From assembly GCF_007748075.1 (NCBI RefSeq), contig NZ_CP036280.1:1500001-1532000 (forward strand): a DNA stretch of 32,000 nt, in the 5' to 3' direction. A program made the translations under genes and the position numbers. Below, one piece after another: positions 1 to 32,000 of the stretch. This DNA is from Mucisphaera calidilacus (lineage in GTDB: Bacteria; Planctomycetota; Phycisphaerae; Phycisphaerales; Phycisphaeraceae). Position 1 is the stretch's first letter. Each line of letters begins with the position of its first letter. The notes beneath the pieces are model-generated. The model was given only the letters and a program-made list of their open reading frames with translations, ran no database searches and was not told the origin of the DNA.

Positions 1-289
1 ACCCCTTCACCGTCGCCGAAATGTCGATCTTCGAACCCGGATACTGCCCCCACGTCCCGTCCGCCCGCTGCTGACGACGCAGATACGCCGTGATCTGAGG
101 CAGCCTCGGGTCGTCCTCCTGCCCCAGAATCCACTTCATGAGGATGTACTCGGACTGCAGAATCGAGTCGCCCTCAAGCTCCGCGCACCAGTGCCCGTCG
201 CCATGCTGCAGACTCAGCAGCTTGCCGACCGCCGCATCCAGACCACGCTTTACGCGACCCTTCAAACCCTGCGTCGGCGGGCGTGTCAT
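1..289 (-). CDS. shc: squalene-hopene cyclase, N-terminal fragment (gene continues past the left window edge)
   Basis: Absent from the supplied ORF track because there is no stop in the window. Manual reverse translation from ATG at 289-287 gives MTRPPTQGLKGRVKRGLDAAVGKLLSLQHGDGHWCAELEGDSILQSEYILMKWILGQEDDPRLPQITAYLRRQQRADGTWGQYPGSKIDISATVKG. The LLSLQ..DGHWC.ELEGD..L.SEYIL and QQ..DG.W..YPG segments match the conserved N-terminus of bacterial SHC. An in-frame stop lies upstream at 376-374. Confidence 0.8.
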   Translation of the reverse strand, partial: MTRPPTQGLKGRVKRGLDAAVGKLLSLQHGDGHWCAELEGDSILQSEYILMKWILGQEDDPRLPQITAYLRRQQRADGTWGQYPGSKIDISATVKG

Positions 290-477
290 CTCGGCATCCG
301 TGGCCTGGGGAACAGCGGTATCCAAAGTCAGTAATCCTCGGTGTGCGGGACGAAGTCTTCGTAAACCGCCAGTTTAATGGACCGGAGCCAATAGAGCGAT
401 GATCTCGGCCAGAACCCATGCCTCGACGACATCGCACAACGCCAAATCACAAATCATCCCCGCGCCTCCCGCCAATA

Positions 478-506
478 GAAAAACGCGGCCCCGCGAAAGG
501 GCCGCG
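478..506 (-). terminator. rho-independent terminator downstream of the LamG-like gene
   Basis: 8-bp GC stem (484-491 cgcggccc / 499-506 gggccgcg) with a 7-nt loop. On the - strand it is followed directly by TTTTT (complement of aaaaa 479-483). It lies 35 nt after the stop at 541. Confidence 0.7.
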
Positions 507-540
507 CTCCTCCATCCTCAATCATCGGGTCGAAACGCGA

Positions 541-1422
541 TCAGCGGCGACGCAGAGCGATCAGGCCGCCCAGACTCACCAGCACGAACGACGCCGGCTC
601 CGGCACAAAACCGCCGTCAGCCACGAAGATCCGGTTCAACGCGTCAACATCGAGCGCCTCATCCCAGACACGCACGTTGTCCTGGTAGCCATTCAACGAC
701 GTATCAGCCGTCGGGGCCGCCGAAGTAAAACCGATGCCGAACTCCGTGTTCGCACCGCCATCACCCGACACCGGACCGATACCACCCGTCGAAGCCACGC
801 CTGCGACAGCCAACGGGCTGTTCAGATCGCCCACATAGAACGTGATGTTGTTGCTCGCAACCGACAGATCAACACTGACCGCCAGGAAAACCCACTGATC
901 AGCCGCGTCAATGTCCATCTGGTCCTGAAATCCCGCGCCAAAACCGTTGTTGGCACCGACAAACAGGGCCGTTCGCACATTGTCAACACCACGGTCACCC
1001 GTGTTCGGGTTGTTCAGGTTCCACGACGGCCCGGGGAACGAACCGCCGCCTTGCTCCGACATCAGACGGACATTCGACGATCCACCCTGATCCGCATTCA
1101 AACCCTGAATGTTGATCCAGGTCGAGAGCGTGAACGTGTTCAGGCCATCCACGATGTCGATGTCACCGGCCGAAAAAACGCTCCCGCTGCCCGCCGCGGT
1201 CAGATCAGCCGCAAAACCCGAGCCGGAAGGCGTGTCCGCAACACGACCGGCGGTCGCGCCGACGCTGCCGTCCGCAGCTGCGCCAAGCGTGCCCGAGTTC
1301 AACGCATCGCCCGCAGCCTCATCAAACGTCCACTCAAGCAGCAACGCCGCCGAAGCACACGGGGTCAGGCTCAGGCCAGCCACGGCAGCCAGAGCACAAG
1401 CCAAAGTCTTCTGAGTCTTCAT
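541..1422 (-). CDS. secreted LamG/concanavalin-A-like lectin domain protein with PEP-CTERM sorting tail
   Basis: ORF 541..1482 trimmed to ATG 1422, which gives the signal peptide MKTQKTLACALAAVAGLSL. RBS GAGGAG is the complement of 1429-1434. Laminin_G_3-like pattern: FTLSTWINI, WVFLAVSVD, ITFYVGD, DNVRVWDEAL. C-terminus VPEPASFVLVSLGGLIALRRR is a PEP-CTERM signal. Confidence 0.85.
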   Translation of the reverse strand: MKTQKTLACALAAVAGLSLTPCASAALLLEWTFDEAAGDALNSGTLGAAADGSVGATAGRVADTPSGSGFAADLTAAGSGSVFSAGDIDIVDGLNTFTLSTWINIQGLNADQGGSSNVRLMSEQGGGSFPGPSWNLNNPNTGDRGVDNVRTALFVGANNGFGAGFQDQMDIDAADQWVFLAVSVDLSVASNNITFYVGDLNSPLAVAGVASTGGIGPVSGDGGANTEFGIGFTSAAPTADTSLNGYQDNVRVWDEALDVDALNRIFVADGGFVPEPASFVLVSLGGLIALRRR

Positions 1423-1655
1423 CAATCTCTCCTCATTCTCGAATAGATGTCGCAGGGGTACAGACCAAAAAACACGATTCATAAACCTGTCACACTATAA
1501 ATCACCAACCGACCCTCCGGAAGATCAATCCGACGGATTAGACCGAAAAACACATAAACCCCGCCAGAACCTAGACTTATTCAAATATGAACGCAAGAAT
1601 ATGTTATGAATTGTACATAACTTATATTATCGGACTCTGGATCGTTCACCTGTGG

Positions 1656-2270
1656 TCAAGCCCGACGCAGCATCATTGACCACGCCACCCCGATCCCCTC
1701 CGGCAACGCCTCGCACTCCTGCTCAAAAACCCGAGCAGCCAGCGTCCCCGACGTATCGTCATCCAGAACCGGGCAGCAACGCTGCACCAGAATCGGCCCG
1801 TTGTCATACGCATCATCCGCGAGATGCACCGTACAACCCGACACCTTGCAGCCCGCCTTCAACACCGCCTCGTGAACGTTATCCCCGTACATCCCCGGTC
1901 CGCCGAAACTCGGCAGCAGCGCCGGGTGAATGTTCAGCACCCGACCCTCGAAGTCCGGCGCAATCCTCAACAAACTCAACCAGCCCGCAAGCACAACCAG
2001 ATCCACACCCGCCGCCCGACAACGGTCAAAAACCACGTCCGAGAAATCCTCACGATGGTCAAAATCCTGCGACCGGATACGCACAATCGGCACGTCGCCG
2101 TGAAGATCACGCTCGCACGCCGCCTCGTCCGCCTTCGTATTCGAAGCGATCACCAGATCAATCGACGCCGTGAGCCGACCATCCGCGATCCGATCCGCCA
2201 GATTCTGCAGCGAACGGCCACCACCCGAAACCAGCACCGCCAGACGTGGACCAACCTGTGAATCAGACAT
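1656..2270 (-). CDS. purN: phosphoribosylglycinamide formyltransferase
   Basis: ORF 1656..2324 trimmed to ATG 2270 (MSDSQVGPRLAVLVSGGGRSLQNL). PurN hallmarks present: LVSGGG.., LAGWL, NIHPALLPSFGG, VHLADDAYDNGPIL. Confidence 0.9.
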   Translation of the reverse strand: MSDSQVGPRLAVLVSGGGRSLQNLADRIADGRLTASIDLVIASNTKADEAACERDLHGDVPIVRIRSQDFDHREDFSDVVFDRCRAAGVDLVVLAGWLSLLRIAPDFEGRVLNIHPALLPSFGGPGMYGDNVHEAVLKAGCKVSGCTVHLADDAYDNGPILVQRCCPVLDDDTSGTLAARVFEQECEALPEGIGVAWSMMLRRA

Positions 2271-3274
2271 ACCGATACGATAACGACTTGTCCGCTCCAG
2301 CCACACCCGCAACCCGCCTCGCACCCTCGCCCACCGGAGCGCTGCACCTCGGCAACGCCCGAACCTTCCTCATCAACTGGGCCCTCGCCACGCAGAACAA
2401 CTGGCGCATCATCCTCCGCATCGAAGACCTCGACGGCCCACGCATCAAGCAAGGCAGCGACCTCGGCGCGATCGACACCCTCCGCTGGCTCGGCATCACG
2501 TGGCACGACGGCCCGCACTACCAGGCCGCCGACCTCACGCCCTACACCCACGCTATGCAGACCCTCCTCGATCAACGCCTCATCTACCCCTGCCCCGCCA
2601 CCCGCAAAGAAATCGAGGCCTCCCTCTCAGCACCCCACGCCGACGACCACGAACGCCGCTACCCCGGATTCCACCGCCCGACCACCGATGCCGACTGGCA
2701 ACGTGTCCAGCAACACGCCAACGACCGCGGTCTCCTCAACGAGGGTGACTGGGCCTGGCGTCTGATCGTCCCCGATCAACCCATCACCATCCACGACACC
2801 TTCGCACCGCCCGCCCGGGTCAACGTCCAGCAGCAGGTCGGCGACTTCGTCATCGCCTCCAAGGCCGGACTCCCCGCCTACCAGCTCGCCGTCGTCGTCG
2901 ACGACGCACGCCAGAGCATCACCCACGTCGTCCGAGGCGACGACCTGCTCCACGCCTCCGCACGACAGCACTGGCTCTACAAGTTTCTCGGTCAGGAAGA
3001 CCTCATCCCCAGCTACACCCACCTGCCGCTCGTCGTTGGTCCCGACGGACGACGACTCGCCAAGCGCCACGGCGACACACGCATCGCATCCTTCCGTGAC
3101 GCCGGTGTCCCCCCCGAACGCATCGTCGGCCTCATCGCATACCAGGCCGGCATCACCCAACAACGCACACCCATGACCGCGGCTCAATTCGCCACAGAAT
3201 TCTCACTCGACACACTCCCCCGCACGCCCGTAACCTGCACGCAGGAGGACACCGATTGGCTGCTCGCGCCCTGA
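2246..3274 (+). CDS. gluQ: glutamyl-Q tRNA(Asp) synthetase (GluRS catalytic-domain paralog)
   Basis: RLAPSPTGALHLGNARTF (HIGH-type motif), YQLAVVVDD, VVRGDDLL, RLAKRHGD (KMSKS equivalent). About 340 aa with no anticodon-binding domain, which is the YadB/GluQ-RS architecture. Start is uncertain: ATG 2246 overlaps the purN start, and in-frame TTG 2288 gives an E. coli-like N-terminal length. Confidence 0.85.
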   Translation: MDQPVNQTYRYDNDLSAPATPATRLAPSPTGALHLGNARTFLINWALATQNNWRIILRIEDLDGPRIKQGSDLGAIDTLRWLGITWHDGPHYQAADLTPYTHAMQTLLDQRLIYPCPATRKEIEASLSAPHADDHERRYPGFHRPTTDADWQRVQQHANDRGLLNEGDWAWRLIVPDQPITIHDTFAPPARVNVQQQVGDFVIASKAGLPAYQLAVVVDDARQSITHVVRGDDLLHASARQHWLYKFLGQEDLIPSYTHLPLVVGPDGRRLAKRHGDTRIASFRDAGVPPERIVGLIAYQAGITQQRTPMTAAQFATEFSLDTLPRTPVTCTQEDTDWLLAP

Positions 3275-3762
3275 CCATCCTGCTCATCACCACCCTGTTC
3301 GCCGCCGGCTGCGATCCCGCGCCCAAGTCACCCGAGCAGATCCGCCAGGCCATCGCCGACGCCGACATCCAACCCGTCACCATCAACGGCAAAACCTTCA
3401 ATCTCGAAATCGCCGCCACACACGACAAACGCGTACAGGGCCTCTCCGACAGGGAGTCCATCGCCGACGACGGCGGCATGATCTTCGTCTTCAAAGCACC
3501 CGCACGACGTGCCTTTGTCATGCGACGCTGCCTCGTACCCATCGACATCCTCTTTCTCGATCCAGACGGCACAATCGTCAGAAGCCACGCCATGAAGGTC
3601 GAGCCCTACGACCGCAGCGAACTCGCCCTCAAACGCTACAACTCTCGCTGGCCCGCCCAGTTCGCCATCGAACTCCAGGGCGGAATGATCGAAAAACTCG
3701 GCATCGAAGACGGACAAACCATCGATCTCCCACTCGACAAGCTCAAGGCCCTCGCCGAGTAG
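3256..3762 (+). CDS. DUF192 domain lipoprotein
   Basis: TTG start 6 nt after a strong RBS GGAGGA (3244-3249). Lipobox LFAAGC. DUF192-like pattern: RVQGLSDR..DDGGMIFVF...FVMRRCLVPIDILFLD.DG.IV, ending FAIELQGG. Overlaps the gluQ 3' end by 19 nt. Confidence 0.8.
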   Translation: MAARALTILLITTLFAAGCDPAPKSPEQIRQAIADADIQPVTINGKTFNLEIAATHDKRVQGLSDRESIADDGGMIFVFKAPARRAFVMRRCLVPIDILFLDPDGTIVRSHAMKVEPYDRSELALKRYNSRWPAQFAIELQGGMIEKLGIEDGQTIDLPLDKLKALAE

Positions 3763-3817
3763 CCCGATAAACCAATTATCACTCCGGGATTTCTGCCCAC
3801 CAGCTGAGGGCTGACAC

Positions 3818-5008
3818 ATGCAGGACGGGTCGCTCCTTATCGTCGACGACGGAAATCTAAACGTCGCTCAACTCGACATCAAGAATATGCTCGGCAACTG
3901 GTCCATCAAGGATCGACCCGAGATCACCATCGGCGGCATCAACACACTGCTCAACGGCAGCCGACCCGCCGCCTGCTGGATCAGACTCCACCACCCCGAA
4001 GCCGACCACTACTTCGAAGCACTCGACTACCTCGAAGTCAACAACATCCCCTCCATGTTCACACGCTGGCCCGAACGCCGTGGCTTCGGACGACTCGACC
4101 GCCCAGGCGTCGTCATCTGCCCACCCAACACCGATTCCACACGCGCCTGCGCCATGCTCCAGGGCATCATCAGCCAGGCAAGCCTCCTCGCACTCATCAC
4201 CGACGAGATGAAAGACATCCAGCGCCAGCAGGAAGGCCTCGCTCAGCAGATCAACAAGATCGACGAGGAACTCCGACTCGCAGCCCAACTCCAACGCGAG
4301 TTCCTCCCCGCCTCCCTGCCCACGCTCGACGAACTCAGCTTCCAGGTCCTCTGGCGCCCCGCCGGCTACGTCAGCGGCGACATCTACGACGCAAGACAGA
4401 TCGACGACCGACACCTCGCCTTCTTCGTCGCCGATGCCGTCGGTCATGGCGTACCCGCCGCCCTTCTCACCGTCTACATCCGACAGTCGCTCCAGCAGGC
4501 CCTGCTCCCCATCAGCGTCACCGGACGCACACAACCCATCGAGCCGGGCGAAGCCCTCGACCGACTCAACCAGGAACTACTCGCACGACAGGACGACCAG
4601 GTCCGCTTCGCTACCGCCGTCTTCGGCCTCTACGACAAACAGACACGCACCGTACGACTCTGCCGCGCAGGTCACCCCCTGCCCCTGATCATCGCCAGCG
4701 ACGGCTCGCAACAGACGATCTCCGACTGCGACGGACCCCTGCTCGGCGTATTCGAAGACGCAGAATTCACCACCGCCGAAGTCCAACTCGACCCGGGCGA
4801 CCGACTCGTTATCTACTCCGACGGCTTCGAGATGGCCTTCCCCGACGCCGAGACGGGCACCGCCAACAACCGCTACCTCGAAGCCTTCAACGACCTCGCC
4901 TCCGAACCCGCCGAGACATCGATGCTGCGCTTCGAAGACCGACTCACACAGCAGTCCGGCTCACTCCACCAGCAGGACGACATGACGCTCCTCTGCCTCG
5001 CGGCGTAG
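3818..5008 (+). CDS. PP2C/SpoIIE-family serine phosphatase with N-terminal receiver-like domain
   Basis: RsbU/SpoIIE pattern: LQREFLP.., GYVSGDIYD, FFVADAVGHGVPAALL, LCRAGHPLPL, LVIYSDGF, DDMTLLCL. The N-terminus starts LLIVDD like a response-regulator receiver. Confidence 0.85.
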   Translation: MQDGSLLIVDDGNLNVAQLDIKNMLGNWSIKDRPEITIGGINTLLNGSRPAACWIRLHHPEADHYFEALDYLEVNNIPSMFTRWPERRGFGRLDRPGVVICPPNTDSTRACAMLQGIISQASLLALITDEMKDIQRQQEGLAQQINKIDEELRLAAQLQREFLPASLPTLDELSFQVLWRPAGYVSGDIYDARQIDDRHLAFFVADAVGHGVPAALLTVYIRQSLQQALLPISVTGRTQPIEPGEALDRLNQELLARQDDQVRFATAVFGLYDKQTRTVRLCRAGHPLPLIIASDGSQQTISDCDGPLLGVFEDAEFTTAEVQLDPGDRLVIYSDGFEMAFPDAETGTANNRYLEAFNDLASEPAETSMLRFEDRLTQQSGSLHQQDDMTLLCLAA

Positions 5009-5121: not shown

Positions 5122-5874
5122 ATGAAATCATGGTTCGGGTCGTTTGTCGTCACACTCTTGTTCTCGCTCTGCACGTCATCCGTGAACGCAGATGCAGTGC
5201 GCGTGATTGCCGCAGGTGATTCCATCACCGATGGTTACGCCTACCAAAGAATGCGGCTCCAACGCGCTCTGGATACCGTCAGCATCGATTGCACCGCCAT
5301 GCACGCCGCATACTCCGGCCGTAAGGCTCAGGATTTTATCAACGAAGGGGGAATCAACGCGACGCTCGACAAAGATCCCGACGTCATCCTCCTCATGCTC
5401 GGAACCAACGACGCTCTCCGGGCTAGCTTCTCAGCCCCCGACACCTACTTCGACGACTACACGCTTGCGATGTCCTCCATCTTCGAAGCCGTCCACGCCT
5501 TTACCAACACCCGAGGCGAATCCCCCGAGATCATCCTGCTCAACCTCATCCCCGTCATCGATAAGCCCGCACTGCCGGGATCGGTGAATATCGATTTTGC
5601 CAACCAAGCCATCGAAGCCTTCAACACCTGGCTCGAGCAACAGGCTCAGCAACATGGTTACTCCCTCTTCGACACCTACACACTCATCACCTCGCAGCCC
5701 GACTGGCAGGACATGTACAACGACGGCATACACCTCTGGGGGGACGACGAACGCGGGTATGACCTCATGGCCGACCAACTCGCACAGCAGGTCGAAACCG
5801 TGATGCTCCCAGAGCCTATCGCAGCAAGCTCACTCATGATCCTGCTCGCCACAACTCGGCTACGCCAACGCTAA
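5122..5874 (+). CDS. SGNH/GDSL-family hydrolase with PEP-CTERM tail
   Basis: RBS GAGGAGA upstream of ATG 5122. Signal peptide present. Block I is AAGDSITDG, block III is LGTNDA, block V is DGIHLW. C-terminus LPEPIAASSLMILLATTRLRQR is PEP-CTERM-like. Confidence 0.85.
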   Translation: MKSWFGSFVVTLLFSLCTSSVNADAVRVIAAGDSITDGYAYQRMRLQRALDTVSIDCTAMHAAYSGRKAQDFINEGGINATLDKDPDVILLMLGTNDALRASFSAPDTYFDDYTLAMSSIFEAVHAFTNTRGESPEIILLNLIPVIDKPALPGSVNIDFANQAIEAFNTWLEQQAQQHGYSLFDTYTLITSQPDWQDMYNDGIHLWGDDERGYDLMADQLAQQVETVMLPEPIAASSLMILLATTRLRQR

Positions 5875-6648: not shown

Positions 6649-8436
6649 ATGTCCCTCAGAACGCACACCTGCGGCGCCCTCCGTGCCGACCACGTCGACC
6701 AGACCGTCTCACTCTGCGGATGGGTCAACAGCTACCGCGACCACGGCGGCGTCATCTTCATCGACCTGCGCGACCGCGAAGGCATCACCCAGGTCGTCTT
6801 CCACCCCGAGAACGCCGACGCACACGCCACCGGCGACCGCCTCCGCAACGAGGACGTCGTCCGCATCACCGGCACCTGCCTCCGCCGCGAGGAGGGCATG
6901 GCCAACCCCAAACTCGTCACCGGCGAGATCGAGGTCGACGCCCGACAGGTCGAGATCCTCAATAAGGCCGACACACCCCCCTTCACGCCCGACGACGCCG
7001 CACGCACCGGCGAGGAAACACGACTGCGCTACCGATTCATCGACATGCGCCGACCGGCCATGCAGAACATCCTCCGCACACGACACCGCGTCGCCAAACT
7101 CATGCGCGACTACTTCGACGAGAACGGCTTCTACGAGGTCGAAACCCCCTTCCTCTGCCGATCCACACCCGAAGGCGCACGCGACTTCCTCGTCCCCAGC
7201 CGACTCCAGCCCGGCGAGTTCTACGCGCTGCCCCAGAGCCCCCAGCTCTTCAAGCAGATCCTCATGTCAGGCGGCATCGACAAATACTTCCAGATCGTCC
7301 GCTGCTTCCGCGACGAAGACCCCCGCGCCGACCGCCAGGCCGAGTTCACCCAGCTCGACGTCGAGATGAGCTTCATCGACCAGGAAGACGTCATGAACAC
7401 CCACGAGGGGCTCATGCGCCGCATCTGGAAGGAAGTCCTCGACGTCGACGTCCCCGAAATCCGCCGCATGACCTACGCCGAAGCCATGAACCGCTACGGC
7501 TCCGACCGACCCGACCTCCGCTTCGACCTCGAACTCATCGACGTCACCGACATCGCCAAAGGCACCGACTTCAAGGTCTTCACCGCCTCCATCGAAGCAG
7601 GCGGCATCGTCAAGGCCATCCGTGTCCCCGGCGGCGCCAAACTCTCCCGCAAGGAAACCGACACCCTTGCCGAGTGGGTCAAGCAGTTCGGTGCCGGCGG
7701 CCTGCCCGTCTCCAAACGCGAAAACGGCGCCTGGTCCACCGGCATCGCCAAGTTCATCGAACCCGTCGGCGACGCCCTCGCCGAACGGCTCGGCGCACAG
7801 GACGGCGACCTCGTCTGCTTCGGCGTCAGCAACAAACCCGCCGTCGTCCACCGCGTCCTCGGCGAACTCCGCATACGACTCGCACACGACCTCGGCATGA
7901 TCCGCGACGACCAGTGGGAATGGCTCTGGGTCATCGACTTCCCCCTCGTCGAGTGGGACGACGACCGCAAACGCTGGCACTCCCTCCACCACCCCTTCAC
8001 CAGCCCCAACCCCGAGGACATGGACAAGCTCGAGTCCGACACCGCCAACGTCCGATCCTGGGCCTACGACCTCGTTCTCAACGGATCCGAACTCGGCGGC
8101 GGCTCCGTCCGTATCCACGACACCGAAACCCAGAAACGCGTCTTCAAGGTCCTGGGCATCGACGAGGAAGAAGCACGAGCCAAATTCGGCTTCCTCCTCG
8201 ACGCACTACGCTTCGGCGCCCCGCCCCACGGCGGAATCGCCTTCGGTCTCGACCGCATCGTCATGCACCTCTGCGGGACCACCAACATCCGCGACGTCAT
8301 CGCCTTCCCCAAAACGCAGAACGGAGCCGACCTCCTCACCGAAGCGCCCTCCGAGGTCGACCTCGAACAGCTCAAGGAACTCCACCTCCGCGTCAACCTG
8401 CCCCAGCCCGCCGCCACACCCACGCCCACCGCCTAG
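6649..8436 (+). CDS. aspS: aspartate--tRNA ligase (bacterial type)
   Basis: MSLRTHTCGALR...V.LCGWV...RDHGGVIFIDLRD..G..QVVF, FYALPQSPQLFKQ, QIVRCFRDEDPRADRQ.EFTQLD.EM, GGGS.RIH, PPHGG.A.GLDR. ATG 6649 gives 595 aa, which is typical. The ORF also opens at ATG 6580, adding 23 low-complexity residues. Confidence 0.93.
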   Translation: MSLRTHTCGALRADHVDQTVSLCGWVNSYRDHGGVIFIDLRDREGITQVVFHPENADAHATGDRLRNEDVVRITGTCLRREEGMANPKLVTGEIEVDARQVEILNKADTPPFTPDDAARTGEETRLRYRFIDMRRPAMQNILRTRHRVAKLMRDYFDENGFYEVETPFLCRSTPEGARDFLVPSRLQPGEFYALPQSPQLFKQILMSGGIDKYFQIVRCFRDEDPRADRQAEFTQLDVEMSFIDQEDVMNTHEGLMRRIWKEVLDVDVPEIRRMTYAEAMNRYGSDRPDLRFDLELIDVTDIAKGTDFKVFTASIEAGGIVKAIRVPGGAKLSRKETDTLAEWVKQFGAGGLPVSKRENGAWSTGIAKFIEPVGDALAERLGAQDGDLVCFGVSNKPAVVHRVLGELRIRLAHDLGMIRDDQWEWLWVIDFPLVEWDDDRKRWHSLHHPFTSPNPEDMDKLESDTANVRSWAYDLVLNGSELGGGSVRIHDTETQKRVFKVLGIDEEEARAKFGFLLDALRFGAPPHGGIAFGLDRIVMHLCGTTNIRDVIAFPKTQNGADLLTEAPSEVDLEQLKELHLRVNLPQPAATPTPTA

Positions 8437-10312: not shown

Positions 10313-10401
10313 CTCCAGGATCGCACGCCGTTACAATAGTTACACAGCGGTTAACGTTCGACGCGCCGTTCACCGTTCAATCACCAGAAGAGGAGAACAC
10401 C

Positions 10402-20878: not shown

Positions 20879-20897
20879 AAGACACCTCACTCAGTAG

Positions 20898-20914: not shown

Positions 20915-20986
20915 ATGCATCGCCCGATACGTCAAGCGTCTTGAATCTTAAAATATCTCGTTTTATGGAAATATGTCGAACTGTCG

Positions 20987-23643: not shown

Positions 23644-24750
23644 TCAGGTCACGTTCAACGTCGGACGATCCGCCGCCTCCGACATCAGGTGCATCGACAC
23701 CTGCGACACCAAACCGCGCGACAACTCCGATAGATCACGCGCCAACGCGTCGTCGCCCGTGAAGTTCGCCGACGGATCACCCGCGTCCGCGTTGTAACGC
23801 AGTGCCGTGTTGATCGGGATCCGACCCAGGAACGGAATCCCCGACTGCTGCGCCATCAACTCCGCACCGCCCTTGCCGAAGATGTCATACTCCTTGCCGT
23901 CGTCACCGATGAAGTAACTCATGTTCTCGACGACACCCAGCACCTCGATCCGCATCTGCCGGAACATCGCCACCGCACGACGCGCATCATCCTGAGCCAC
24001 CTTCTGAGGCGTGCATACCACCACCGCGCCCGTCAGAGGCAGCAGTTGTGCCATCGTCAGCGGAACATCACCCGTACCGGGCGGCAGATCGATGATCAGG
24101 TAATCCAAATCACCCCAGAGCGTCTGGCTGATCAACTGCCGAAACGCACCGTGCGCCATCGGCCCACGCCAGATCAGCGGCTTCTCATCCTCCACCAGCG
24201 ACCCCAGCGACATCGCCTTCACACCATGCACCTCGAAAGGCAGCAGGTGCTTACCCTCAGCCTTCGCCTCAAAACGATCCAGACCCATCATCGTCGGCAG
24301 CGACGGACCATAAATATCCCCGTCCAGAATCCCCACCTTCGCACCCTGACGCGCCAACCCCACCGCAAGGTTCACCGACACCGTCGACTTGCCCACCCCG
24401 CCTTTGCCCGCTCCCACCGCGATGATGTGCTTCACCCCCGGCAGGTCCACACCCTCCGACTCCGGCTGCTTGGGCTTGCTCTCACCCCCGCCGCCCTGCG
24501 CCAGCCCCGTCGTGAACTCGATCTCAACACCCTCCACGCCCGCTTCAATCCCCCGCAGAGCCGCCGTCACCCGCGACCGCAACTCCGACTTCAGCGACTC
24601 GTGCAGCGAAGAAACCTTCAACTGTAACCGCACCACGCCACCGTCAATCGACACGTGACGCACCATGTTCAGCGTCACCAGATCACGCTGTAACTCCGGG
24701 TCCAGGACCCCCCCAAGGGCCTCCATAACCTGTTGCTGACTGATCGACAT
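23644..24750 (-). CDS. apbC: Mrp/NBP35-family Fe-S cluster carrier ATPase
   Basis: ORF trimmed to ATG 24750, with RBS AGGAGA upstream. N-terminal DUF59/MIP18-like region (V..AL..V.DPEL..DLV.L.MV). Walker A is GKGGVGKST. DLPPGTGD also present. Confidence 0.9.
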   Translation of the reverse strand: MSISQQQVMEALGGVLDPELQRDLVTLNMVRHVSIDGGVVRLQLKVSSLHESLKSELRSRVTAALRGIEAGVEGVEIEFTTGLAQGGGGESKPKQPESEGVDLPGVKHIIAVGAGKGGVGKSTVSVNLAVGLARQGAKVGILDGDIYGPSLPTMMGLDRFEAKAEGKHLLPFEVHGVKAMSLGSLVEDEKPLIWRGPMAHGAFRQLISQTLWGDLDYLIIDLPPGTGDVPLTMAQLLPLTGAVVVCTPQKVAQDDARRAVAMFRQMRIEVLGVVENMSYFIGDDGKEYDIFGKGGAELMAQQSGIPFLGRIPINTALRYNADAGDPSANFTGDDALARDLSELSRGLVSQVSMHLMSEAADRPTLNVT

Positions 24751-24899
24751 CAATAAATCTCCTGATTGCAACGATCCTAGGAACTTCACCACCCCAAGGC
24801 CAATACGAACTTTTCCCATCGACCTGCAATCAACGCCACACCCACGCGTTACGTCTCATGGAATCACGATAAGCAACCCCGAAAGGGAAAGGACAAGCC

Positions 24900-26123
24900 A
24901 TGAAAATCGTCACCCGTAAGAACCTCCTCTGGACAGGCATCGCCGTCGCTTCCATCGGCCTCCTCGGCATCGCCGCCCTCCCCGCCGACGCACAATTCCG
25001 AGGCGACCGGCAAGGCCCCGATCGCCGAGGAATGATGAGCCCCGAGAAACCCGAGGCCCGAGGCGACCAGAGGACCCAGATGCTCCGCACCCTCTTCCGC
25101 GACGTCAACCTCACCGACGAGCAACGCGAAACAGCCCTCGAGATCGGCAAGCAGCACCGCGCCGAGATGCAGGCCTGGCGAGAAGCCAATGAGCCCCAGC
25201 TCCGCGAGCTCATGGCCGACGCCCGCGACGCCCGCGAACTCGACGACCGCGACCAGCTCCAGGCACTCATGGCCGAATTCCGCGAACTCCGCGAATCCGC
25301 ACCCCAGATGACCGACAGCCTCGAAGGCATCCGCGACATCCTCGACGAAGACCAGCTAGCCACCTTCGATGAGAACCTGGAGAAGATCCGCAGCCAGATC
25401 GAGCGACGCATGCCGCAGCCCGGCGAACGACGCGGACCCGGCTTCGACCAAGGCCGACAAGGCCGTGGCGGCCCCGGTTTCGACCAGCGACGGCAGGGAC
25501 CGGGCCGACCCGGCTTCGACCAAGGCCGACAAGGCCGTGGCGGCCCCGGTTTCGATCAGCGACGTCAGGGCCCGGGCCGACCCGGCTTCGATGGGCAGCG
25601 ACAAGGCCCTCCCGGCCCAGGCGGCCCCGAGGCCCGAGGCGACCAGCGGACCCAGATGCTCCGCACCCTCTTCCGCGACGTCAACCTCACCGACGAGCAA
25701 CGCGAAGCAGCCCTCGAGATCGGCAAGCAGCACCGCGCCGAGATGCAGGCCTGGCGAGAGGCCAACGAGCCCCAGCTCCGCGAGCTCATGGCCGACGCCC
25801 GCGACGCCCGCGAACTCGACGACCGCGACCAGCTCCAGGCACTCATGGCCGAATTCCGCGAACTCCGCGAATCCGCACCCCAGATGACCGACAGCCTCGA
25901 AGGCATCCGCGACATCCTCGACGAAGACCAGCTAGCCACCTTCGATGAGAACCTGGAGAAGATCCGCAGCCAGATCGAGCGACGCATGCCGCAGCCCGGC
26001 GAACGACGCGGACCCGGACGAGACGCTCAGCGACCCCGTGGCCCCCGGTCACAGGCCGCACCCGAGCAATCTGGCACCACTTCGGCAGAAAAAAGTAGCA
26101 CAGAGGATCAGCTTGATTTATGA
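24900..26123 (+). CDS. Spy/CpxP (LTXXQ)-like periplasmic protein, internally duplicated
   Basis: Signal peptide ..GIAALPADAQ. Two copies of a ~130-aa helical module containing NLTDEQRE.ALEIGKQHRAEMQAWRE. They are joined by a Gly/Pro/Gln/Arg-rich repeat linker. Confidence 0.8.
   Translation: MKIVTRKNLLWTGIAVASIGLLGIAALPADAQFRGDRQGPDRRGMMSPEKPEARGDQRTQMLRTLFRDVNLTDEQRETALEIGKQHRAEMQAWREANEPQLRELMADARDARELDDRDQLQALMAEFRELRESAPQMTDSLEGIRDILDEDQLATFDENLEKIRSQIERRMPQPGERRGPGFDQGRQGRGGPGFDQRRQGPGRPGFDQGRQGRGGPGFDQRRQGPGRPGFDGQRQGPPGPGGPEARGDQRTQMLRTLFRDVNLTDEQREAALEIGKQHRAEMQAWREANEPQLRELMADARDARELDDRDQLQALMAEFRELRESAPQMTDSLEGIRDILDEDQLATFDENLEKIRSQIERRMPQPGERRGPGRDAQRPRGPRSQAAPEQSGTTSAEKSSTEDQLDL
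25051..25441 (+). repeat. 391-nt direct repeat, copy 1 (module 1 of the Spy/CpxP-like gene)
   Basis: 4 mismatches by eye against 25627-26017. The offset is 576 nt, so the repeat is in frame. Confidence 0.92.
25436..25610 (+). repeat. 72-nt tandem repeat, about 2.4 units, encoding PGFDQGRQGRGGPGFDQRRQGPGR
   Basis: Units start at 25436, 25508 and 25580. The first two are near-identical and the third decays. Confidence 0.85.
25627..26017 (+). repeat. 391-nt direct repeat, copy 2
   Basis: See 25051-25441. Confidence 0.92.
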
Positions 26124-26262: not shown

Positions 26263-27210
26263 CTACTGAACCGCACCCTCCGTCATCCGCATGAACGCCG
26301 TTTCCAGACTCGCCTCCTCACGCCTCAGCTCAACCAGCTTTAACCCCGCCTCCACCAGACACCGCGCTATCTGACCCACCGTCTCCGGGTGATGAGCCTC
26401 CAGCTCCACCAACAGCCCCTCCGCCTCCACACGAACACCCGTCACCCCCGACAACCCCGCCAACGCCCGCCGGGCATCATCCGCACGCTCCGCCACACGC
26501 ACGTGCAGCCGCCCGCCCGTCTCCGTCCGCGCCAGCAACTCATCCTTCCCGCCCACGAACTTCAGCTTCCCCCGCTCGATGATCCCGAACTTGTTACACA
26601 ACTCCGACAGCTCCGGCAGAATGTGCGAACTGATCAGAATCGTCTTGCCCATCCGGTGCAGCTCCTTGAGCAGCTCACGCATCTCCACCCGCGCCCGCGG
26701 ATCCAGACCCGACGCCGGCTCATCCAGCAGCAGCAGCTTCGGATCGTGAAGCAGCGCCCGCGCCACCGACAAACGCTGCTGCATGCCTCGCGACAAACCA
26801 TTCACCTCCGAAAGCGACTTGCCCGTCAGGTCCGTCAGCTCCAGCACGTCCCCGATCACACGCCGGCGATCCTGCCCCATGATCCCGTACGACGCCGCAA
26901 AAAACTCCAGATACTCCGTCACCGTCAGGTCCGCGTACGACCCGAAAAAGTCAGGCACGTACGCGATGATCCGACGCACCTCCTGAGCATTCACCGGCCC
27001 CACACTCAACCCGTCAATCCGAGCCTCACCCCACGTCGGCTTCAGCAGCGTCGACAGAATCTTCATCGTCGTCGTCTTGCCCGCCCCGTTCGGACCCAGA
27101 AAACCAAACGCGTCACCCTCCTCCACCGTCAGCGTCAGATGATCCAACGCCACCAGCTCGCCATACTTCTTCGTCAGGTTCTGAGTCTGGATCATGCCCA
27201 TCACGCTCAC
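26263..27210 (-). CDS. ABC transporter ATP-binding protein (ABC-2/DrrA-like, with C-terminal accessory domain)
   Basis: Walker A GPNGAGKTT, signature LSRGMQQR, Walker B LLLLDEP, H-loop SSHIL. GTG 27210 overlaps the upstream stop (GTGA). ATG 27201 or 27195 are alternative starts. Confidence 0.9.
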   Translation of the reverse strand: MSVMGMIQTQNLTKKYGELVALDHLTLTVEEGDAFGFLGPNGAGKTTTMKILSTLLKPTWGEARIDGLSVGPVNAQEVRRIIAYVPDFFGSYADLTVTEYLEFFAASYGIMGQDRRRVIGDVLELTDLTGKSLSEVNGLSRGMQQRLSVARALLHDPKLLLLDEPASGLDPRARVEMRELLKELHRMGKTILISSHILPELSELCNKFGIIERGKLKFVGGKDELLARTETGGRLHVRVAERADDARRALAGLSGVTGVRVEAEGLLVELEAHHPETVGQIARCLVEAGLKLVELRREEASLETAFMRMTEGAVQ

Positions 27211-29459
27211 TCCGTCCCACGCACACCCGCACCAAGATCAACGATCAGACGCAACGCCGTCACACCCGACGACACCGGCTCACGACCACGCACCACGAAA
27301 CGACCCGCCAGCGGACTCTCCTCCACCAACCCCGTCAGGATCAGAACCCCCGGCTGCAAACGATGACTCAGGTCAAGGTCACGCATCAACCCGCGACGGA
27401 TCACCGTCGCACGATCCTGCAGCTCAGTCAGCACGTGGAAACGTGGCGGCGGCATCAGCTCATAAAACGTCAGCACCCGCAGCTTCGCCAGAAAATGACT
27501 CCGCGACGACCCCGGAATCCCTCCCACACCCTGACCCATCCCCAGAACGCCACGCGTCGGGAACACCGACAACTGAGCGCCCAGGAAACCCTCCATCCTC
27601 AAACTCCGCACACCGTCAAAACCGTAATGCGACGGACGCCGAACCAGACGCAACGCCTCCGTCGGCGGCTCCAACACGATCAACCCCGCATCAGACCGCG
27701 TCACACGCCACGTCAACGCACGCGCCGGATCCGACTCGCCCTCCGGCAGATACGTCGCCTGCACGTAAAGCACCCGCGCCGGAAGCCCGTGCCGGATCTC
27801 ACCCACAGGCAACCCGTCCACCAGCTCCAGGCCGTGATGGATCGTCGCCGCATAACCCAGGTCATCCACCGGCCCCACCATCGTCGCCTTGATCATCCGC
27901 GACGCCGATCGCGACGGAACCGTTAACGAAGAAGGATCAGTCGTATCTACCGGGTACGCACGCGCGTCCAGGAACGGCACGCTCGCCAGCCCAGGCCAGC
28001 CCGGCGACGACAGCAACGCACGCGACCCGCCCTGCTCAAAACCGATCGAGACTTCATTGAACTCAGGCATATACACAGACAGCCACGTCTCCACCCGACC
28101 CACACCCTCCGTCAGATCAACGTCCACAAAACTCATGTGACGCAGCTGCGACTGCCCGCTGCCCGTGAACAACGCCACCGACCACGTCATCACGCCGAAC
28201 AACACCGTCAGCCCCGCAAACGCCAGCCACGCGTAACCGCTCCGCTGCTGACGCTTGAGCACGAAGTAACTCACCGGGCCCGCCAGCAACCAGTAGCCCA
28301 CCAGCATCAGCAGCAACAGATTCAGCCAGCCGCCCACCGAACGCTGCAGGTCCACCGGAGCCGAAAGATCCTCATCCAGGTCCGTCTTGATCCGCACCGG
28401 CGAATCCTCCGAGCTGATCTTCCGGTCACGGATCGCCTGCTCAAGCATCGCCCTCGGCAGCACAGGGTCCTGCCAGCCGAACACCCGATGCCAAAGCCGA
28501 AAACGGCTGTCGTCCGCCACCTTCCGACGAAAACCCGGATCGGTCACGTCCGCCCCCAACACCGTCACACGACCCATCCCGTACACACCCGAGACCAGTA
28601 ACGCCGATCCATCATCCAGGCGACCACGCACCCACGCGCCTTCACGCGGCACCATCGTCTGCATCACCACCGAATACGAACCCTCCGTCACACGACGCCC
28701 CAGCCACGCCGGCGGCCGCGCCTCCACACGACGAACCAGACCCGGACGGATCGGCAGCAGATCACGCACCGAACTGCTCGTCCACGTCTCACCCGCCGAA
28801 GGCAGAATCACCACCAGCTCGCCCCCGCCATACACCCACGCACGCAAAGCCTCCCGCTGAGCAGGCGACCACGAAGCCCCCGACGGATCTCCCCCGCCCT
28901 CACCCCAGCAGATCACGTCGATCGCATCCAGACCCTGGGCACGGTCCGGCAGATCACTCAGCTCCTGACCCTGAATCACCTGCACTGGCTCATGACGCGT
29001 CACACCCGTCTCGAACGCCCGAAGCCCCGTCCGACCCGACGCCAGCTGAAGAATCCGCTTCACGTGAGGCGTACCACCCATCACGCTCTGCACCGTCACC
29101 TCCCCCAGCGGAACACCCGTTTCCCCATCCGACGCCGTCACCCGAACGCGAAGCTGCGCCGCCGCCGCCACACCATAAAGCCACGTGTCCACCCGCCGAT
29201 TCCCGTCCACCGTCACGACACGCTCATACAACGCCGTGTCACCGTCCGAATCACCAAGCGGCAGCCGCAAACGCACCGACACCGGCTCCGCGCTCGTGTT
29301 CTCCACACCCACACGCACCGGCGACCACAGGCCCGGATAAAGACGACCCTCAAACCCCAGCGAACTCTGATCCACATCAAGACGAATCGACCCGTACGCC
29401 GGCACACACGCCAGCGACACCAGGAAACACAGCATCAGAATCGTCTTGATCAGCTTCAT
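27207..29459 (-). CDS. 750-aa membrane protein of unknown function (signal peptide, large N- and C-terminal extracytoplasmic regions, central TM hairpin)
   Basis: ORF trimmed to ATG 29459 (MKLIKTILMLCFLVSLACVPAYG). Hydrophobic segments WLNLLLLMLVGYWLLAGPVSYFVL and YAWLAFAGLTVLFGVMTWSVALF. A GATase1-like / ABC-auxiliary-like stretch reads DVICWGEGG...REALRAWVYGGGELVVILPS. Confidence 0.8.
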   Translation of the reverse strand: MKLIKTILMLCFLVSLACVPAYGSIRLDVDQSSLGFEGRLYPGLWSPVRVGVENTSAEPVSVRLRLPLGDSDGDTALYERVVTVDGNRRVDTWLYGVAAAAQLRVRVTASDGETGVPLGEVTVQSVMGGTPHVKRILQLASGRTGLRAFETGVTRHEPVQVIQGQELSDLPDRAQGLDAIDVICWGEGGGDPSGASWSPAQREALRAWVYGGGELVVILPSAGETWTSSSVRDLLPIRPGLVRRVEARPPAWLGRRVTEGSYSVVMQTMVPREGAWVRGRLDDGSALLVSGVYGMGRVTVLGADVTDPGFRRKVADDSRFRLWHRVFGWQDPVLPRAMLEQAIRDRKISSEDSPVRIKTDLDEDLSAPVDLQRSVGGWLNLLLLMLVGYWLLAGPVSYFVLKRQQRSGYAWLAFAGLTVLFGVMTWSVALFTGSGQSQLRHMSFVDVDLTEGVGRVETWLSVYMPEFNEVSIGFEQGGSRALLSSPGWPGLASVPFLDARAYPVDTTDPSSLTVPSRSASRMIKATMVGPVDDLGYAATIHHGLELVDGLPVGEIRHGLPARVLYVQATYLPEGESDPARALTWRVTRSDAGLIVLEPPTEALRLVRRPSHYGFDGVRSLRMEGFLGAQLSVFPTRGVLGMGQGVGGIPGSSRSHFLAKLRVLTFYELMPPPRFHVLTELQDRATVIRRGLMRDLDLSHRLQPGVLILTGLVEESPLAGRFVVRGREPVSSGVTALRLIVDLGAGVRGTE

Positions 29460-29568
29460 CTCGGGGTTCCCCGGAAAGTCGCTGGGATTGTAACCACTCA
29501 ACCGGCCGATAACCCGCCCCGTCACACGCCACGGGCCGACACACACACCTTACGTCGATACTCTCTCC

Positions 29569-29862: not shown

Positions 29863-29894
29863 ACCACCCACCGTTGGCTGGTATCGTGATCGCC

Positions 29895-31298
29895 ATGAAC
29901 CGACTCCTCATCCGTGGCGGGCACCTGATCGACCCCCAGAACAACATCGACACCCAGGCCGACATCCTCCTCGTCGACGGCCGAGTCGCCAACGTCGGAA
30001 CCGTCCCGCCCTCCGAGGCCGACGGCACACCCACCCTCGACGCATCCGGACTCCTCGTCACCCCCGGACTCATCGACATCCACGTCCACTTCCGCGAGCC
30101 CGGCCAGGAACAGAAAGAAACCATCGCCACCGGCGCCGCAGCCGCCATCGCAGGCGGATTTACCTCCGTCTGCTGCATGCCCAACACCACACCCGCCATC
30201 GACGACGACGCCAGCATCGACTTCATCGACGAACGAGCCCACCGCGCCAACCTCGCCAACGTCTTCGCCACCGGATGCCTCACACGAAACCGCGCCGGCG
30301 AGGAACTCGCAGAAATCGCCCTCATGGCACAACGCGGAGCCGTCGCCTTCACCGACGACGGCACAGGCGTCGCCTCCGCCGACCTCATGGCCAAGGCCAT
30401 GACCTACGTCGGCATGACCGGACGCGCCGTCTTCCAGCACTGCGAAGACCCCACCCTCGGCGGGGGCGCCATGAACGCCGGACCCCTCGCCACGAGGCTC
30501 GGTCTCCCCGGATGGCCCGGCCTCGCCGAAGAACTCATGATCCAACGCGACCTCATGATCGCCCGATCACAGAACTACCACACCCGCTGGCACGCACAGC
30601 ACATGACCACCGCCAACGGCGCCGAACTCCTCCGACGCGCCAAACACGACGCCGGCGACAACGCACACCGCATCACAGGCGAGGTCTCACCCCACCACCT
30701 GCTCCTCACCGAAGAAGCCTGCGCCGAATACGACACCCACGCCAAGATGAACCCGCCCCTCCGCACCACCGCCGACATCGAAGCCCTCCGACAGGCCGTC
30801 GCCGACCGCACCATCACCATCCTCGCCACCGACCACGCCCCCCACACCGCCGAGGAAAAAGCCCTCGAGTTCGAGGACGCGCCCTACGGCATCATCGGCC
30901 TCGAACCCGCCCTCGCCCTCTACATCAAGGCGCTCATCGACGCCGGCACCATCGACTGGCCAAGACTCATCGAGATGATGACCATCCGCGGAGCCGAACT
31001 CTGCAACCTCGACGGCCGAGGACACCTCGCCACCGGTGCCCACGCCGACGTCACCCTCATCGACCCCAATCTCAACTGGACCATCGACGCCCACGCCTTC
31101 GCCGGCAAGGCCGCCAACTGCCCCTTCCACGGCTGGAACGTCCGCGGACGCGCCGTCGCCACCATCGTCTCAGGCGACATCAAGCTCCTCCGCGACGCCG
31201 ACCGACTCTCCGACGCAACCGCAACACCCCCCGCCGACGAAGCCGCACTGGCAACATTCGCCGCCGAACGCGCCGCCGCACCACCGCGTCAGGGCTGA
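29895..31298 (+). CDS. pyrC: dihydroorotase (class I, amidohydrolase superfamily)
   Basis: ATG 29895 (MNRLLIRGG.LIDP). GLIDIHVHFREPG (HxH metal site), PNT.P, VSPHHL, ATDHAPH. Confidence 0.9.
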   Translation: MNRLLIRGGHLIDPQNNIDTQADILLVDGRVANVGTVPPSEADGTPTLDASGLLVTPGLIDIHVHFREPGQEQKETIATGAAAAIAGGFTSVCCMPNTTPAIDDDASIDFIDERAHRANLANVFATGCLTRNRAGEELAEIALMAQRGAVAFTDDGTGVASADLMAKAMTYVGMTGRAVFQHCEDPTLGGGAMNAGPLATRLGLPGWPGLAEELMIQRDLMIARSQNYHTRWHAQHMTTANGAELLRRAKHDAGDNAHRITGEVSPHHLLLTEEACAEYDTHAKMNPPLRTTADIEALRQAVADRTITILATDHAPHTAEEKALEFEDAPYGIIGLEPALALYIKALIDAGTIDWPRLIEMMTIRGAELCNLDGRGHLATGAHADVTLIDPNLNWTIDAHAFAGKAANCPFHGWNVRGRAVATIVSGDIKLLRDADRLSDATATPPADEAALATFAAERAAAPPRQG

Positions 31299-31302
31299 AC
31301 CC

Positions 31303-31989
31303 TCACTCCCCCTCCGGCCCGACCAGAACCTGCCCCCTGCGCAAACCGTAATACCCGCCCATCGGCTCCGGCACCGTCGCCTTGCCGCCCACGTCACAAC
31401 CCGAGTGCGACAAACGCGAACCCGTGTGCACCGACATGTGCAGGTGCGGCCAGGTCGTGCCCGAATCACCCGACTTGCCGATCACCTCGCTCCGCTTCAC
31501 CCACACCTCCGGCTCGCCATACGCCACCTCCGGGAAACGACGCTCTGAAAGATGCGCATAGATCGACGTCACGCCCTCGCCGTGATCGATCACCACGTAC
31601 TGACCGTAACCATCCTCACGGTGCTGGCACGTCACCACACGACCCGGCGCCACCGCCAGCACCTCCGTCCCGGCGGGCAGATCAAAGTCCAGCGCAAAGA
31701 AATCATTCGCCGCACCATCGCGCCCGATCGTCTTGTGCGTCCACCAACGCGCCTCGTGACCATACCCCTCCTCCACCGTGAACGAACCGCGGAACGGCAG
31801 CGACAAACGCATCCCCTCCGGCAGATGAGCCGTCCCCGACATCAGATCCCTCGGCCGAGGCGTCAGAAATCGCATCTCACGCACCGCCTCCGCCGACGCC
31901 GCCGGCTTGCCCAGCACCGCTCCGCCCACGATCGTCGCCACGTCACGACGCACTGGCGCCGCCTTCCCATCCGCGTCCGACGGGTGCAC
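31303..31989 (-). CDS. M23-family (LytM-type) metallopeptidase
   Basis: VVIDHGEGVTSIYAHLS (HxxxD), GKSGDSGTTWPHLHMSVH (HxH). The GTG at 31989 is only the first start candidate; the frame stays open to the window end, so the N-terminus may be truncated. Confidence 0.8.
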   Translation of the reverse strand: MHPSDADGKAAPVRRDVATIVGGAVLGKPAASAEAVREMRFLTPRPRDLMSGTAHLPEGMRLSLPFRGSFTVEEGYGHEARWWTHKTIGRDGAANDFFALDFDLPAGTEVLAVAPGRVVTCQHREDGYGQYVVIDHGEGVTSIYAHLSERRFPEVAYGEPEVWVKRSEVIGKSGDSGTTWPHLHMSVHTGSRLSHSGCDVGGKATVPEPMGGYYGLRRGQVLVGPEGE

Positions 31990-32000
31990 CCGATTCGTCA

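Follow-up and report, generated by a model that had tools for sequence, protein, structure and literature searches.

Extreme DNA-strand asymmetry and mirror-image codon usage in a 32-kb stretch of the Mucisphaera calidilacus chromosome

INTRODUCTION

Codon usage that is specific to the replication strand was reportedly described for genomes of the Borrelia type by McInerney in 1998 and by Lafay et al. in 1999. Here we analyse a stretch of 32 kb from the chromosome of Mucisphaera calidilacus (NZ_CP036280.1; the whole stretch is called the window throughout), in which the two DNA strands differ so strongly in base composition that genes of opposite orientation use opposite sets of synonymous codons. 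The phenomenon itself is known, namely replication-strand asymmetry of the kind that is accompanied by strand-specific codon usage in Borrelia; the organism is unexpected and the magnitude extreme.

Replication-strand skew is usually small, and the parts played in it by mutation and selection, as well as the type of lesion involved, have been argued for about 30 years on weak signals. The genes of the two replication strands differ in codon usage and amino-acid composition in Borrelia/Borreliella burgdorferi, Treponema, Chlamydia, Lawsonia and Buchnera (PMC2671203; PMC6042203). Genomes of this type have a G/T-rich leading strand, a mutational cause and only subordinate translational selection; the window probably resembles them in the first two of these respects and may do so in the third. 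However, these organisms are AT-rich, host-restricted and reduced in repair, whereas Mucisphaera is a free-living, aerobic mesophile of 64% GC.

A strand contrast of similar size at four-fold degenerate sites is found in vertebrate mitochondrial DNA, where a keto (G+T) strand is paired with an amino (A+C) strand. The mitochondrial sign flips upon a change of replication polarity (PMC4182315, PMC13602327), and the proteins shift in composition (PMC2779903). The mitochondrial molecule, however, keeps a single sign throughout and shows a gradient that follows the time of single-strand exposure, whereas in Mucisphaera two plateaus of opposite sign flank a switch and the 32 kb analysed show no gradient.

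The source strain, Pan265T, is a free-living, aerobic mesophile (growth at 27–36°C, optimum 30–33°C) with a GC content of 63.9%, a coding density of 91.7% and 50 tRNAs (PMC8882080). Skew and codon usage are not mentioned in the species description (PMC8882080). We found no paper that ties the Phycisphaerae or Planctomycetes to unusual skew, and phrase searches returned no report of a stronger bacterial case of strand skew; in both instances this is an absence of matches and not a proof of absence.

RESULTS

Base composition of the window

Skews were computed for the 32 kb in 64 bins of 500 bp. The + strand has 13042 C, 7205 G, 7021 A and 4732 T (GC 0.633), which corresponds to an overall GC skew of −0.288 and an AT skew of +0.195. 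The GC skew was below zero in all 64 bins (range −0.52 to −0.12) and the AT skew was negative in only one. The plateau is flat over the window, with no gradient. An earlier note, made from the sequence alone, had described the + strand as rich in C and A and poor in G and T throughout; consistent with this, not a single bin had a positive GC skew. Its four hand counts were also reproduced exactly, both for the third positions of the first 60 codons of aspS (from 6649; C47/G7/A5/T1) and fmt (G39/T12/C9/A0) and for the lines 7021–7080 (C24 G13 A14 T9) and 13561–13620 (C30 G11 A12 T7). The intergenic spacers of the window (2.3 kb) have a GC skew of −0.24 and an AT skew of +0.19.

Synonymous codon choice follows the DNA strand

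True genes were sorted from false open reading frames (ORFs) by the frame rule GC3>GC1>GC2 (GC content by codon position), followed by Pfam confirmation. About 27 genes were obtained, with 54% of the coding bases on the + strand and 46% on the − strand. At four-fold sites, read on their own strand, the + genes have C.743, G.069, A.139 and T.049 (GC skew at these sites, GC4, −0.83; AT skew, AT4, +0.48), and the − genes have G.671, C.099, T.191 and A.039 (GC4 +0.74; AT4 −0.66). The two gene sets become near-identical once both are read on the + strand (C ~.70, A ~.16, G ~.08, T ~.045). When the genes were taken singly and split by orientation, which the earlier note had proposed as a check, GC4 was negative in 13 out of 13 + genes (−0.46 to −0.93) and positive in 12 out of 12 − genes (+0.34 to +0.97). 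There is no overlap between the orientations, and synonymous usage therefore separates the genes by strand.

The codon dialects were said in that note to be mirror images, and this is evident from the individual amino acids. Among alanine codons, GCC makes up 71% in + genes versus 5% in − genes, and GCG 5% versus 81%. The corresponding values are 90% versus 9% for GTC (Val), 85% versus 5% for CTC (Leu), 74% versus 7% for ACC (Thr) and 45% versus 5% for AAA (Lys). Over whole coding sequences, the GC skew has a strand-linked component of 0.295 and a gene-direction component of 0.013 (for AT skew, −0.196 and 0.022, respectively). These components, together with a sign that is set by the DNA strand in all 25 genes, agree with the claim that it is the DNA strand, rather than the transcript, that the bias follows. 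The size given for it, a third-position skew of 0.6–0.7, is correct for all third positions taken together (GC skew −0.66 in + genes and +0.55 in − genes) and too low for the four-fold sites. By codon position, the strand-linked GC skew is ∼0.60 at the third, 0.09 at the first and 0.07 at the second.

We also observed effects of neighbouring bases at four-fold sites. On the G-rich strand, G falls to.40–.55 and T climbs to.28–.37 after a 5′-G, and T is nearly excluded (.02–.04) before a 3′-A. As these effects are alike in genes of both orientations when expressed on the G-rich strand, we concluded that it is the DNA strand that determines the composition.

Scans of the window for tRNA genes and Rfam families gave no match. 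In two relatives, a gene for tRNA-Pro(GGG), the reader of CCC/CCU, lies beside the FHA-SpoIIE gene (16216–16291 in L141 and 5908–5982 in L144; these contigs are described below).

The same genes carry the opposite bias in a sister species

A metagenome-assembled genome of a Mucisphaera sp. (L001; 3.25-Mb contig) has an AspRS that is 87% identical to that of the window. This contig is collinear with positions 3–23705 of the window, with the genes in the same orientation, and its skews are reversed (GC +0.279, AT −0.169). At four-fold sites of conserved amino acids, C in the window corresponds to G in L001 at 749 of the 1351 sites that lie in + genes, and G in the window corresponds to C in L001 at 311 of the 511 that lie in − genes. 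Thus, C and G are swapped at 55–61% of these sites. The HU protein, which is 95% identical between the two, has third positions C59 G28 A16 T6 in the window and G58 C27 T19 A4 in L001. HU is the sole typically abundant protein available here for gauging translational selection, the window being without ribosomal protein genes.

The proteins are affected as well. Among replacements in + genes, whose sense strand is C/A-rich in the window, the residues in excess are I, T, Q, N, D, H and P for the window and V, E, G, R and A for L001. The directional pairs (window versus L001) are I/V 60:11, Q/E 28:2, L/V 24:5, P/A 16:2 and D/E 42:9, and the pattern is mirrored in the − genes. The Asp/Glu replacements (42:9) are due to the third codon base only (GAC versus GAG), and therefore the strand bias alters even conservative acidic residues.

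In a tree of AspRS, the window and L001 form one clade. Six members of its sister clade (L010, L018, L031, L035, L039 and L041) have absolute skews of 0.01–0.03, and the seventh (L017), a short contig of 3.5 kb, has 0.10. Since the sister clade has weak skew, the extreme asymmetry looks like a derived trait of Mucisphaera, as judged from these sequences. In the first scan of the genome collection, whose loci are mostly from Planctomycetota, the window ranked first in absolute skew (0.29) and L001 second (0.28), with a median of 0.06. Some other Phycisphaeraceae loci reach 0.15–0.25, unevenly along the locus. A closer relative for a polarized substitution spectrum was not found in the metagenome collection, where none exceeded ∼74% AspRS identity.

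In a third species the skew switches sign within this gene block

The gene order of the window is also present in a third species (L139; GCA_040222855.1; AspRS 86% identical). On its contig, JAVKCD010000025.1, which comprises L139 followed by L144, the GC skew passes from +0.30 to −0.35 inside this very gene block. The GC4 of individual genes, read on the + strand of L139, is +0.79 to +0.92 from LamG to the gltX-like gene, +0.33 to +0.59 from SpoIIE to ribE, about zero for aspS, asnB and the gene that follows, between −0.12 and −0.20 for fmt and def, and between −0.47 and −0.66 over the genes from HU through the oxidoreductase. In model fits, a ramp between two plateaus, spanning 4.6 to 16.7 kb (∼12 kb), gained 36 log-likelihood units over a step at the price of a single additional parameter. 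L144, which is located 10–30 kb further along this contig, has a GC skew of −0.29 to −0.41, and the negative plateau persists at 50 kb from the switch. A 93%-identical relative (L142) has −0.19 to −0.39 across the right-hand genes of the window. Independent assemblies agree in both DNA and skew (L142 from NCBI with L143 from Logan, and L144 with L145).

Because both strands are G-rich when followed toward the switch, and leading strands are as a general rule rich in G, the switch is of the convergent-fork (terminus) type. We had predicted beforehand that, if the region is terminus-proximal and the switch has moved, it should be found to the right of L001. In L141, which prolongs the L001 contig by 17 kb, the GC skew indeed declines over 16 kb in the order +0.30, +0.32, +0.24, +0.19, +0.16, +0.17, +0.11, +0.09, +0.03 and +0.02. 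The switch is centred on aspS–asnB in L139 and lies >10 kb to the right of pyrC in the L001/L141 genome (ramp at 4–21 kb in L141). For M. calidilacus itself, we infer a switch to the left of the window, beyond position 1. The leftmost 1.5 kb (1–1482; the squalene-hopene cyclase fragment and the LamG gene) has a four-fold skew of 0.24–0.42, and the adjoining purN has 0.82; this half-strength skew may be the edge of a ramp.

The skew switch of bacterial chromosomes is said to have been placed at the replication terminus/dif by Hendrickson and Lawrence in 2007. The polarity change in L139–L144 and L141 is the same convergent-fork change. Well-studied genomes, however, show a sharp switch at dif, whereas in Mucisphaera it is a ramp of 12–30 kb, located at differing places of one syntenic block in three congeners. 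That the ramp is so wide can be read in two ways, either as a broad zone of fork collision or as an evolving terminus with lagging re-equilibration. From these comparisons it would follow that a terminus-type switch has moved among the species, and that congeners replicate this shared set of genes in opposite directions with no rearrangement involved.

The collinear block of opposite sign in L001 and the sign flip within the L139–L144 contig constitute the comparison with related genomes that the earlier note had suggested. Together with the counts per gene, they show that the bias tracks the DNA strand, is common to the genus and, in congeners, reverses at a switch point, beyond which the orthologues are fully re-equilibrated to the composition of the other strand.

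Magnitude relative to published surveys

We used the measures RG, RT and overall skew as defined by Morton and Morton for the four-fold sites of four-codon amino acids (PMC2099444). The window has RG 0.717, RT 0.537 and an overall skew of 0.896. The strongest of the 352 chromosomes in that survey (its Table 6) are Ca. Blochmannia floridanus (RG 0.433, RT 0.107, overall 0.446), Clostridium acetobutylicum (0.426, −0.087, 0.435), Ehrlichia spp. (∼0.35, ∼0.19–0.23, 0.40–0.41) and B. burgdorferi (0.229, 0.300, 0.378) (PMC2099444). The window thus clearly exceeds B. burgdorferi in both RG and RT, and its overall skew of ∼0.90 compares with 0.40–0.45 in Blochmannia, Clostridium and Ehrlichia. Clostridia, moreover, have a purine-type skew with negative RT, whereas in the window both G and T are enriched on the putative leading strand. 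The replication-type component at four-fold sites is about 2-fold the maximum of the survey, the window being 32 kb and the survey values whole-chromosome fits. In terms of the replication component in coding sequences, the phylum means range from 0.001 to 0.096 (Chen and Chen, PMC2031905), compared with the 0.295 obtained here. SkewDB describes GC skew as ‘typically around 2.5%’, and the Borreliaceae were named the most extreme outliers in a survey of 7,738 assemblies. When we applied the method used for the window to the Borrelia plasmid lp54, the four-fold skews were only 0.10 (GC) and 0.17 (AT), and therefore the literature values for the chromosome were chosen as the Borrelia comparator. 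All these figures are in accord with the statement in the earlier note that the skew is far above the usual size.

DISCUSSION

Origin of the asymmetry

We consider it highly probable that the window records an exceptionally strong mutational asymmetry associated with replication, an origin that the earlier note had also proposed. It fits both the opposite sign of the collinear block in the sister species and the flip from about +0.3 to −0.35 in the third. We infer that the G/T-rich strand is the leading strand, that the switch is the terminus and that forks enter the window at its right end and travel to the left. The + strand would then be of the lagging type, as suggested previously, provided that G>C and T>A are taken as the signature of leading strands. 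On this reading, the window would be a terminus-side stretch of the chromosome lying wholly on one side of the skew switch. The mutational difference between leading and lagging strands would bring almost every site under weak constraint to an equilibrium specific to its strand, which for four-fold sites of the leading strand would be about G 0.70, T 0.17, C 0.09 and A 0.04. Codon choice, and part of the amino-acid choice, would therefore depend on the encoding strand.

The specific chemistry is a more tentative matter. The leading strand is poor in C (.07–.10) and A (.04–.05) at four-fold sites, the bases whose deamination gives transitions, and such depletion of C and A is the keto-skew signature known from vertebrate mitochondrial DNA. 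C and A might be lost mainly on the strand that is single-stranded as the lagging-strand template, through C→T and A→G changes of the deamination type; we regard this as a possibility that falls somewhat short of being likely. The T/C ratio at four-fold sites is ∼1.9 on the leading and ∼0.06 on the lagging strand, a contrast of ∼30-fold, which would require rate asymmetries of an order of magnitude and not the roughly 2-fold typical of bacteria. If transitions alone counted, the product of the strand asymmetry for C→T and that for A→G would have to reach ∼30. An asymmetric class of transversions would also be needed, because transitions cannot yield a leading strand that is 74% purine at four-fold sites.

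Several points weigh against an explanation by replication-associated mutation in its simple form. The direction of replication is read only from the general rule that G exceeds C on leading strands. Deamination-type transitions by themselves cannot account for the 74% purines just mentioned. A dif-like core (ATAAT-N6-ATTATG, allowing two mismatches or fewer) was not found in the ramp of L139. As regards the genome-wide magnitude, all the Mucisphaera data come from ∼100 kb around the skew switch. Finally, the GC skew of intergenic DNA and that of four-fold sites are −0.24 and −0.79 in the window, −0.21 and −0.72 in the L144 genome and −0.19 and −0.72 in the L142 genome; the ratio is ∼0.3 in all three, the four-fold sites being ∼3.5 times more skewed, and this is far below the slope of 0.68 found across bacteria (PMC2099444). 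A neutral mutational equilibrium alone predicts similar skew in the two classes unless the short spacers are largely constrained, and the size of this gap leaves room for an amplifying force at the third codon positions.

Such a force could be selection at the DNA level that follows replication polarity (G-rich motifs of the KOPS/AIMS type, or leading-strand composition) and acts mainly inside genes to amplify a modest mutational skew. The intergenic gap in three genomes and the terminus-proximal origin of all the data are in its favour. However, a weaker intergenic skew is usual in bacteria and is ascribed to constraint (PMC2099444), and 92% of this genome is coding. Selection of this kind would also have to affect nearly every four-fold and two-fold site (C 74% versus G 7%), which is beyond the need of any motif set; the amino-acid sequences are reshaped in the direction expected of mutation pressure, and the plateau does not decay over the window or as far as 50 kb from the switch in L144. 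We therefore regard it as improbable. An unusual mode of replication with long single-stranded exposure, such as strand displacement or a very slow discontinuous synthesis of the lagging strand, appears slightly less probable still. The four-fold composition and magnitude recall the contrast between mitochondrial heavy and light strands, and the switch zones are broad. Yet the mitochondrial type of signature combines a single polarity with a gradient, whereas the window is flat over its 32 kb and the plateaus that flank the switch in congeners are equal and opposite (+0.30, −0.35), as fits two convergent forks.

Inversions are the textbook route to a changed replication strand, and two of the relatives are metagenome-assembled genomes, so that the opposite signs of the window and L001 might stem from inversion of the locus, from a foreign island or from a chimeric assembly and not from a moved switch. 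This is very unlikely, as gene order and orientation are collinear over at least 21 kb, the skew shifts along a ramp of 12–30 kb with synteny intact and shows no step at a breakpoint, and the independent assemblies (L142/L143 and L144/L145) have the same DNA with the same skew. A source in transcription or translation (codon adaptation, or transcription-coupled repair or mutation) has hardly any probability left. It is the usual source of codon bias, and nothing specific to this locus speaks for it. The sign follows the DNA strand in 25 out of 25 genes of mixed orientation with a gene-direction component of 0.013, and in the gene for HU, which is typically abundant, the main third-position base is C in one species and G in the other. 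The orientation test thus excludes causes of this class.

Apart from these, two candidate causes were rejected. Thermophily is ruled out by the mesophilic growth range of the strain. Loss of UDG (PF03167) at this locus is ruled out because the L139 genome, which bears the UDG gene, has nearly the same plateau skew (four-fold −0.72).

In addition to replication-associated mutational asymmetry as such, Mucisphaera may conceivably have gained an unusual property of replication or repair, for example a loss or change in repair or proofreading or a strand-specific usage of polymerases. The chromosome of a free-living bacterium would then be evolving with an asymmetry like that of mitochondria, and its terminus would not be fixed, with forks meeting in a zone of 12–30 kb that would have drifted by >40 kb among congeners. 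We offer it as a speculation that is more probably wrong than right. If it is true, the extreme skew records the drift of the terminus at single-gene resolution.

Consequences

A culturable, free-living bacterium in which the signal at neutral sites is 5–10 times the usual makes several quantities accessible. Few mutation-accumulation lines would suffice for a direct measurement of the strand-resolved mutation spectrum, and sequence alone gives the place and extent of the termination zone. It also becomes measurable what it costs the cell to translate two mirror-image codon dialects with a single set of 50 tRNAs. The three congeners are a natural experiment on the speed and completeness with which synonymous sites and proteins follow fork direction. 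There are also practical effects in this genus, namely errors in gene calling and compositional artefacts in phylogenies of these proteins, and tools that rely on codon usage to detect expression or horizontal transfer would fail in Mucisphaera.

Genes of the window and minor observations

The gene content of the window is listed below (coordinates, strand, description, basis of the assignment; GC4 is given on the gene's own strand).

1–400, −, squalene-hopene cyclase, N-terminal fragment; the L139 orthologue is SQHop_cyclase; GC4 +0.42, half-strength
541–1482, −, Laminin_G_3/PEP-CTERM protein (LamG); Pfam; GC4 +0.34 (0.24–0.42 by thirds), lowest among − genes
1656–2324, −, purN-like formyltransferase; PF00551; GC4 +0.82
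2246–3274, +, protein with a Glu/Gln-tRNA-synthetase-like catalytic domain; PF00749; GC4 −0.73
3256–3762, +, DUF192 protein; Pfam; GC4 −0.89
3818–5008, +, SpoIIE-type phosphatase; Pfam; GC4 −0.76
5122–5874, +, GDSL hydrolase; Pfam; GC4 −0.46, lowest among + genes; no match in the sister locus L001
5871–6530, −, ribE (riboflavin synthase); PF00677; GC4 +0.77
6649–8436, +, aspS, product of 595 aa; Pfam; GC4 −0.85
8447–10312, +, asnB (asparagine synthase); Pfam; GC4 −0.82
10390–11085, +, small PEP-CTERM protein, start approximate; translation ends in IPEPASAALLGLAGIALTRRH; orthologue of a 232-aa protein of L139
11593–13206, +, PhoX-like PEP-CTERM protein; Pfam; GC4 −0.88
13293–14294, −, fmt; Pfam; GC4 +0.85
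14291–14803, −, def; Pfam; GC4 +0.97
15001–15330, +, HU; Pfam; third positions as given above
15327–16514, +, class I/II aminotransferase; Pfam; GC4 −0.93
16633–18549 and 18546–20534, −, two tandem HAAS-domain paralogues; Pfam; GC4 +0.70 and +0.64
20531–20890, −, PadR regulator; Pfam; GC4 +0.80
20987–21343, +, ArsR-type helix-turn-helix (HTH) regulator; frame rule and comparison with L139
21343–23022, +, CoA-disulfide-reductase-like oxidoreductase with rhodanese domain, start approximate; Pfam; GC4 −0.86 (for the merged ORF 20941–23022)
23047–23616, +, Rhodanese/YgaP-like protein; Pfam; GC4 −0.86
23644–24819, −, Mrp/ApbC Fe-S carrier ATPase; Pfam; GC4 +0.74
24900–26123, +, LTXXQ-motif protein; Pfam; GC4 −0.86
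26263–27210, −, ABC ATPase; Pfam; GC4 +0.86
27207–29546, −, 779-aa protein with no Pfam match; GC4 +0.83
29895–31298, +, pyrC (dihydroorotase); Pfam; GC4 −0.90
31303–32000, −, M23 peptidase, C-terminal part, continuing past the window edge; Pfam; GC4 +0.70

The window has 62 ORFs of at least 150 aa, compared with the ∼27 genes. Many long spurious ORFs had been attributed to the skew in the earlier note, and this excess, as well as wrong-strand calls on the contig of a relative, bears out that remark. In that instance, three ORFs were called on the − strand at 1340–3299 of L143 (Logan), while in DNA that is 99.99% identical (L142 from NCBI, 1361–3383) an HTH gene and an oxidoreductase gene were called on the + strand. 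The conflict illustrates the long false ORFs produced by skew. In the window, the longest ORF of the corresponding region (20941–23022) runs two genes together, the ArsR-type HTH gene (20987–21343, in a different frame) and the oxidoreductase gene starting near 21343.

An identical PEP-CTERM tail of 21 aa (IPEPASAALLGLAGIALTRRH) closes two neighbouring + genes (∼10390–11085 and 11593–13206). It is encoded by a near-identical DNA repeat of ∼40 nt at 11018–11057 and 13142–13178, and it also matches the LamG/PEP-CTERM gene of L001, which is on the opposite strand (window counterpart 541–1482, −).

Between LamG and purN, L139 (1766–3734) carries genes for UDG (PF03167), a SAM methyltransferase and a DUF2726 protein, all three of which are missing from this place in the window (1483–1655). 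The same interval of L001 (1922–5397) has only frameshifted remnants of the methyltransferase gene (2774–3147), together with a different small island containing a DUF2089 HTH gene. This island is of lower GC and has a weak skew of 0.07–0.11.

The two tandem HAAS paralogues of the window (16633–20534) correspond to one gene in L139 (18187–19992). This single gene is off the trend of its surroundings, with a skew of +0.08 overall and +0.40 in part, compared with about −0.5 in its neighbours, which suggests a recent replacement or conversion.

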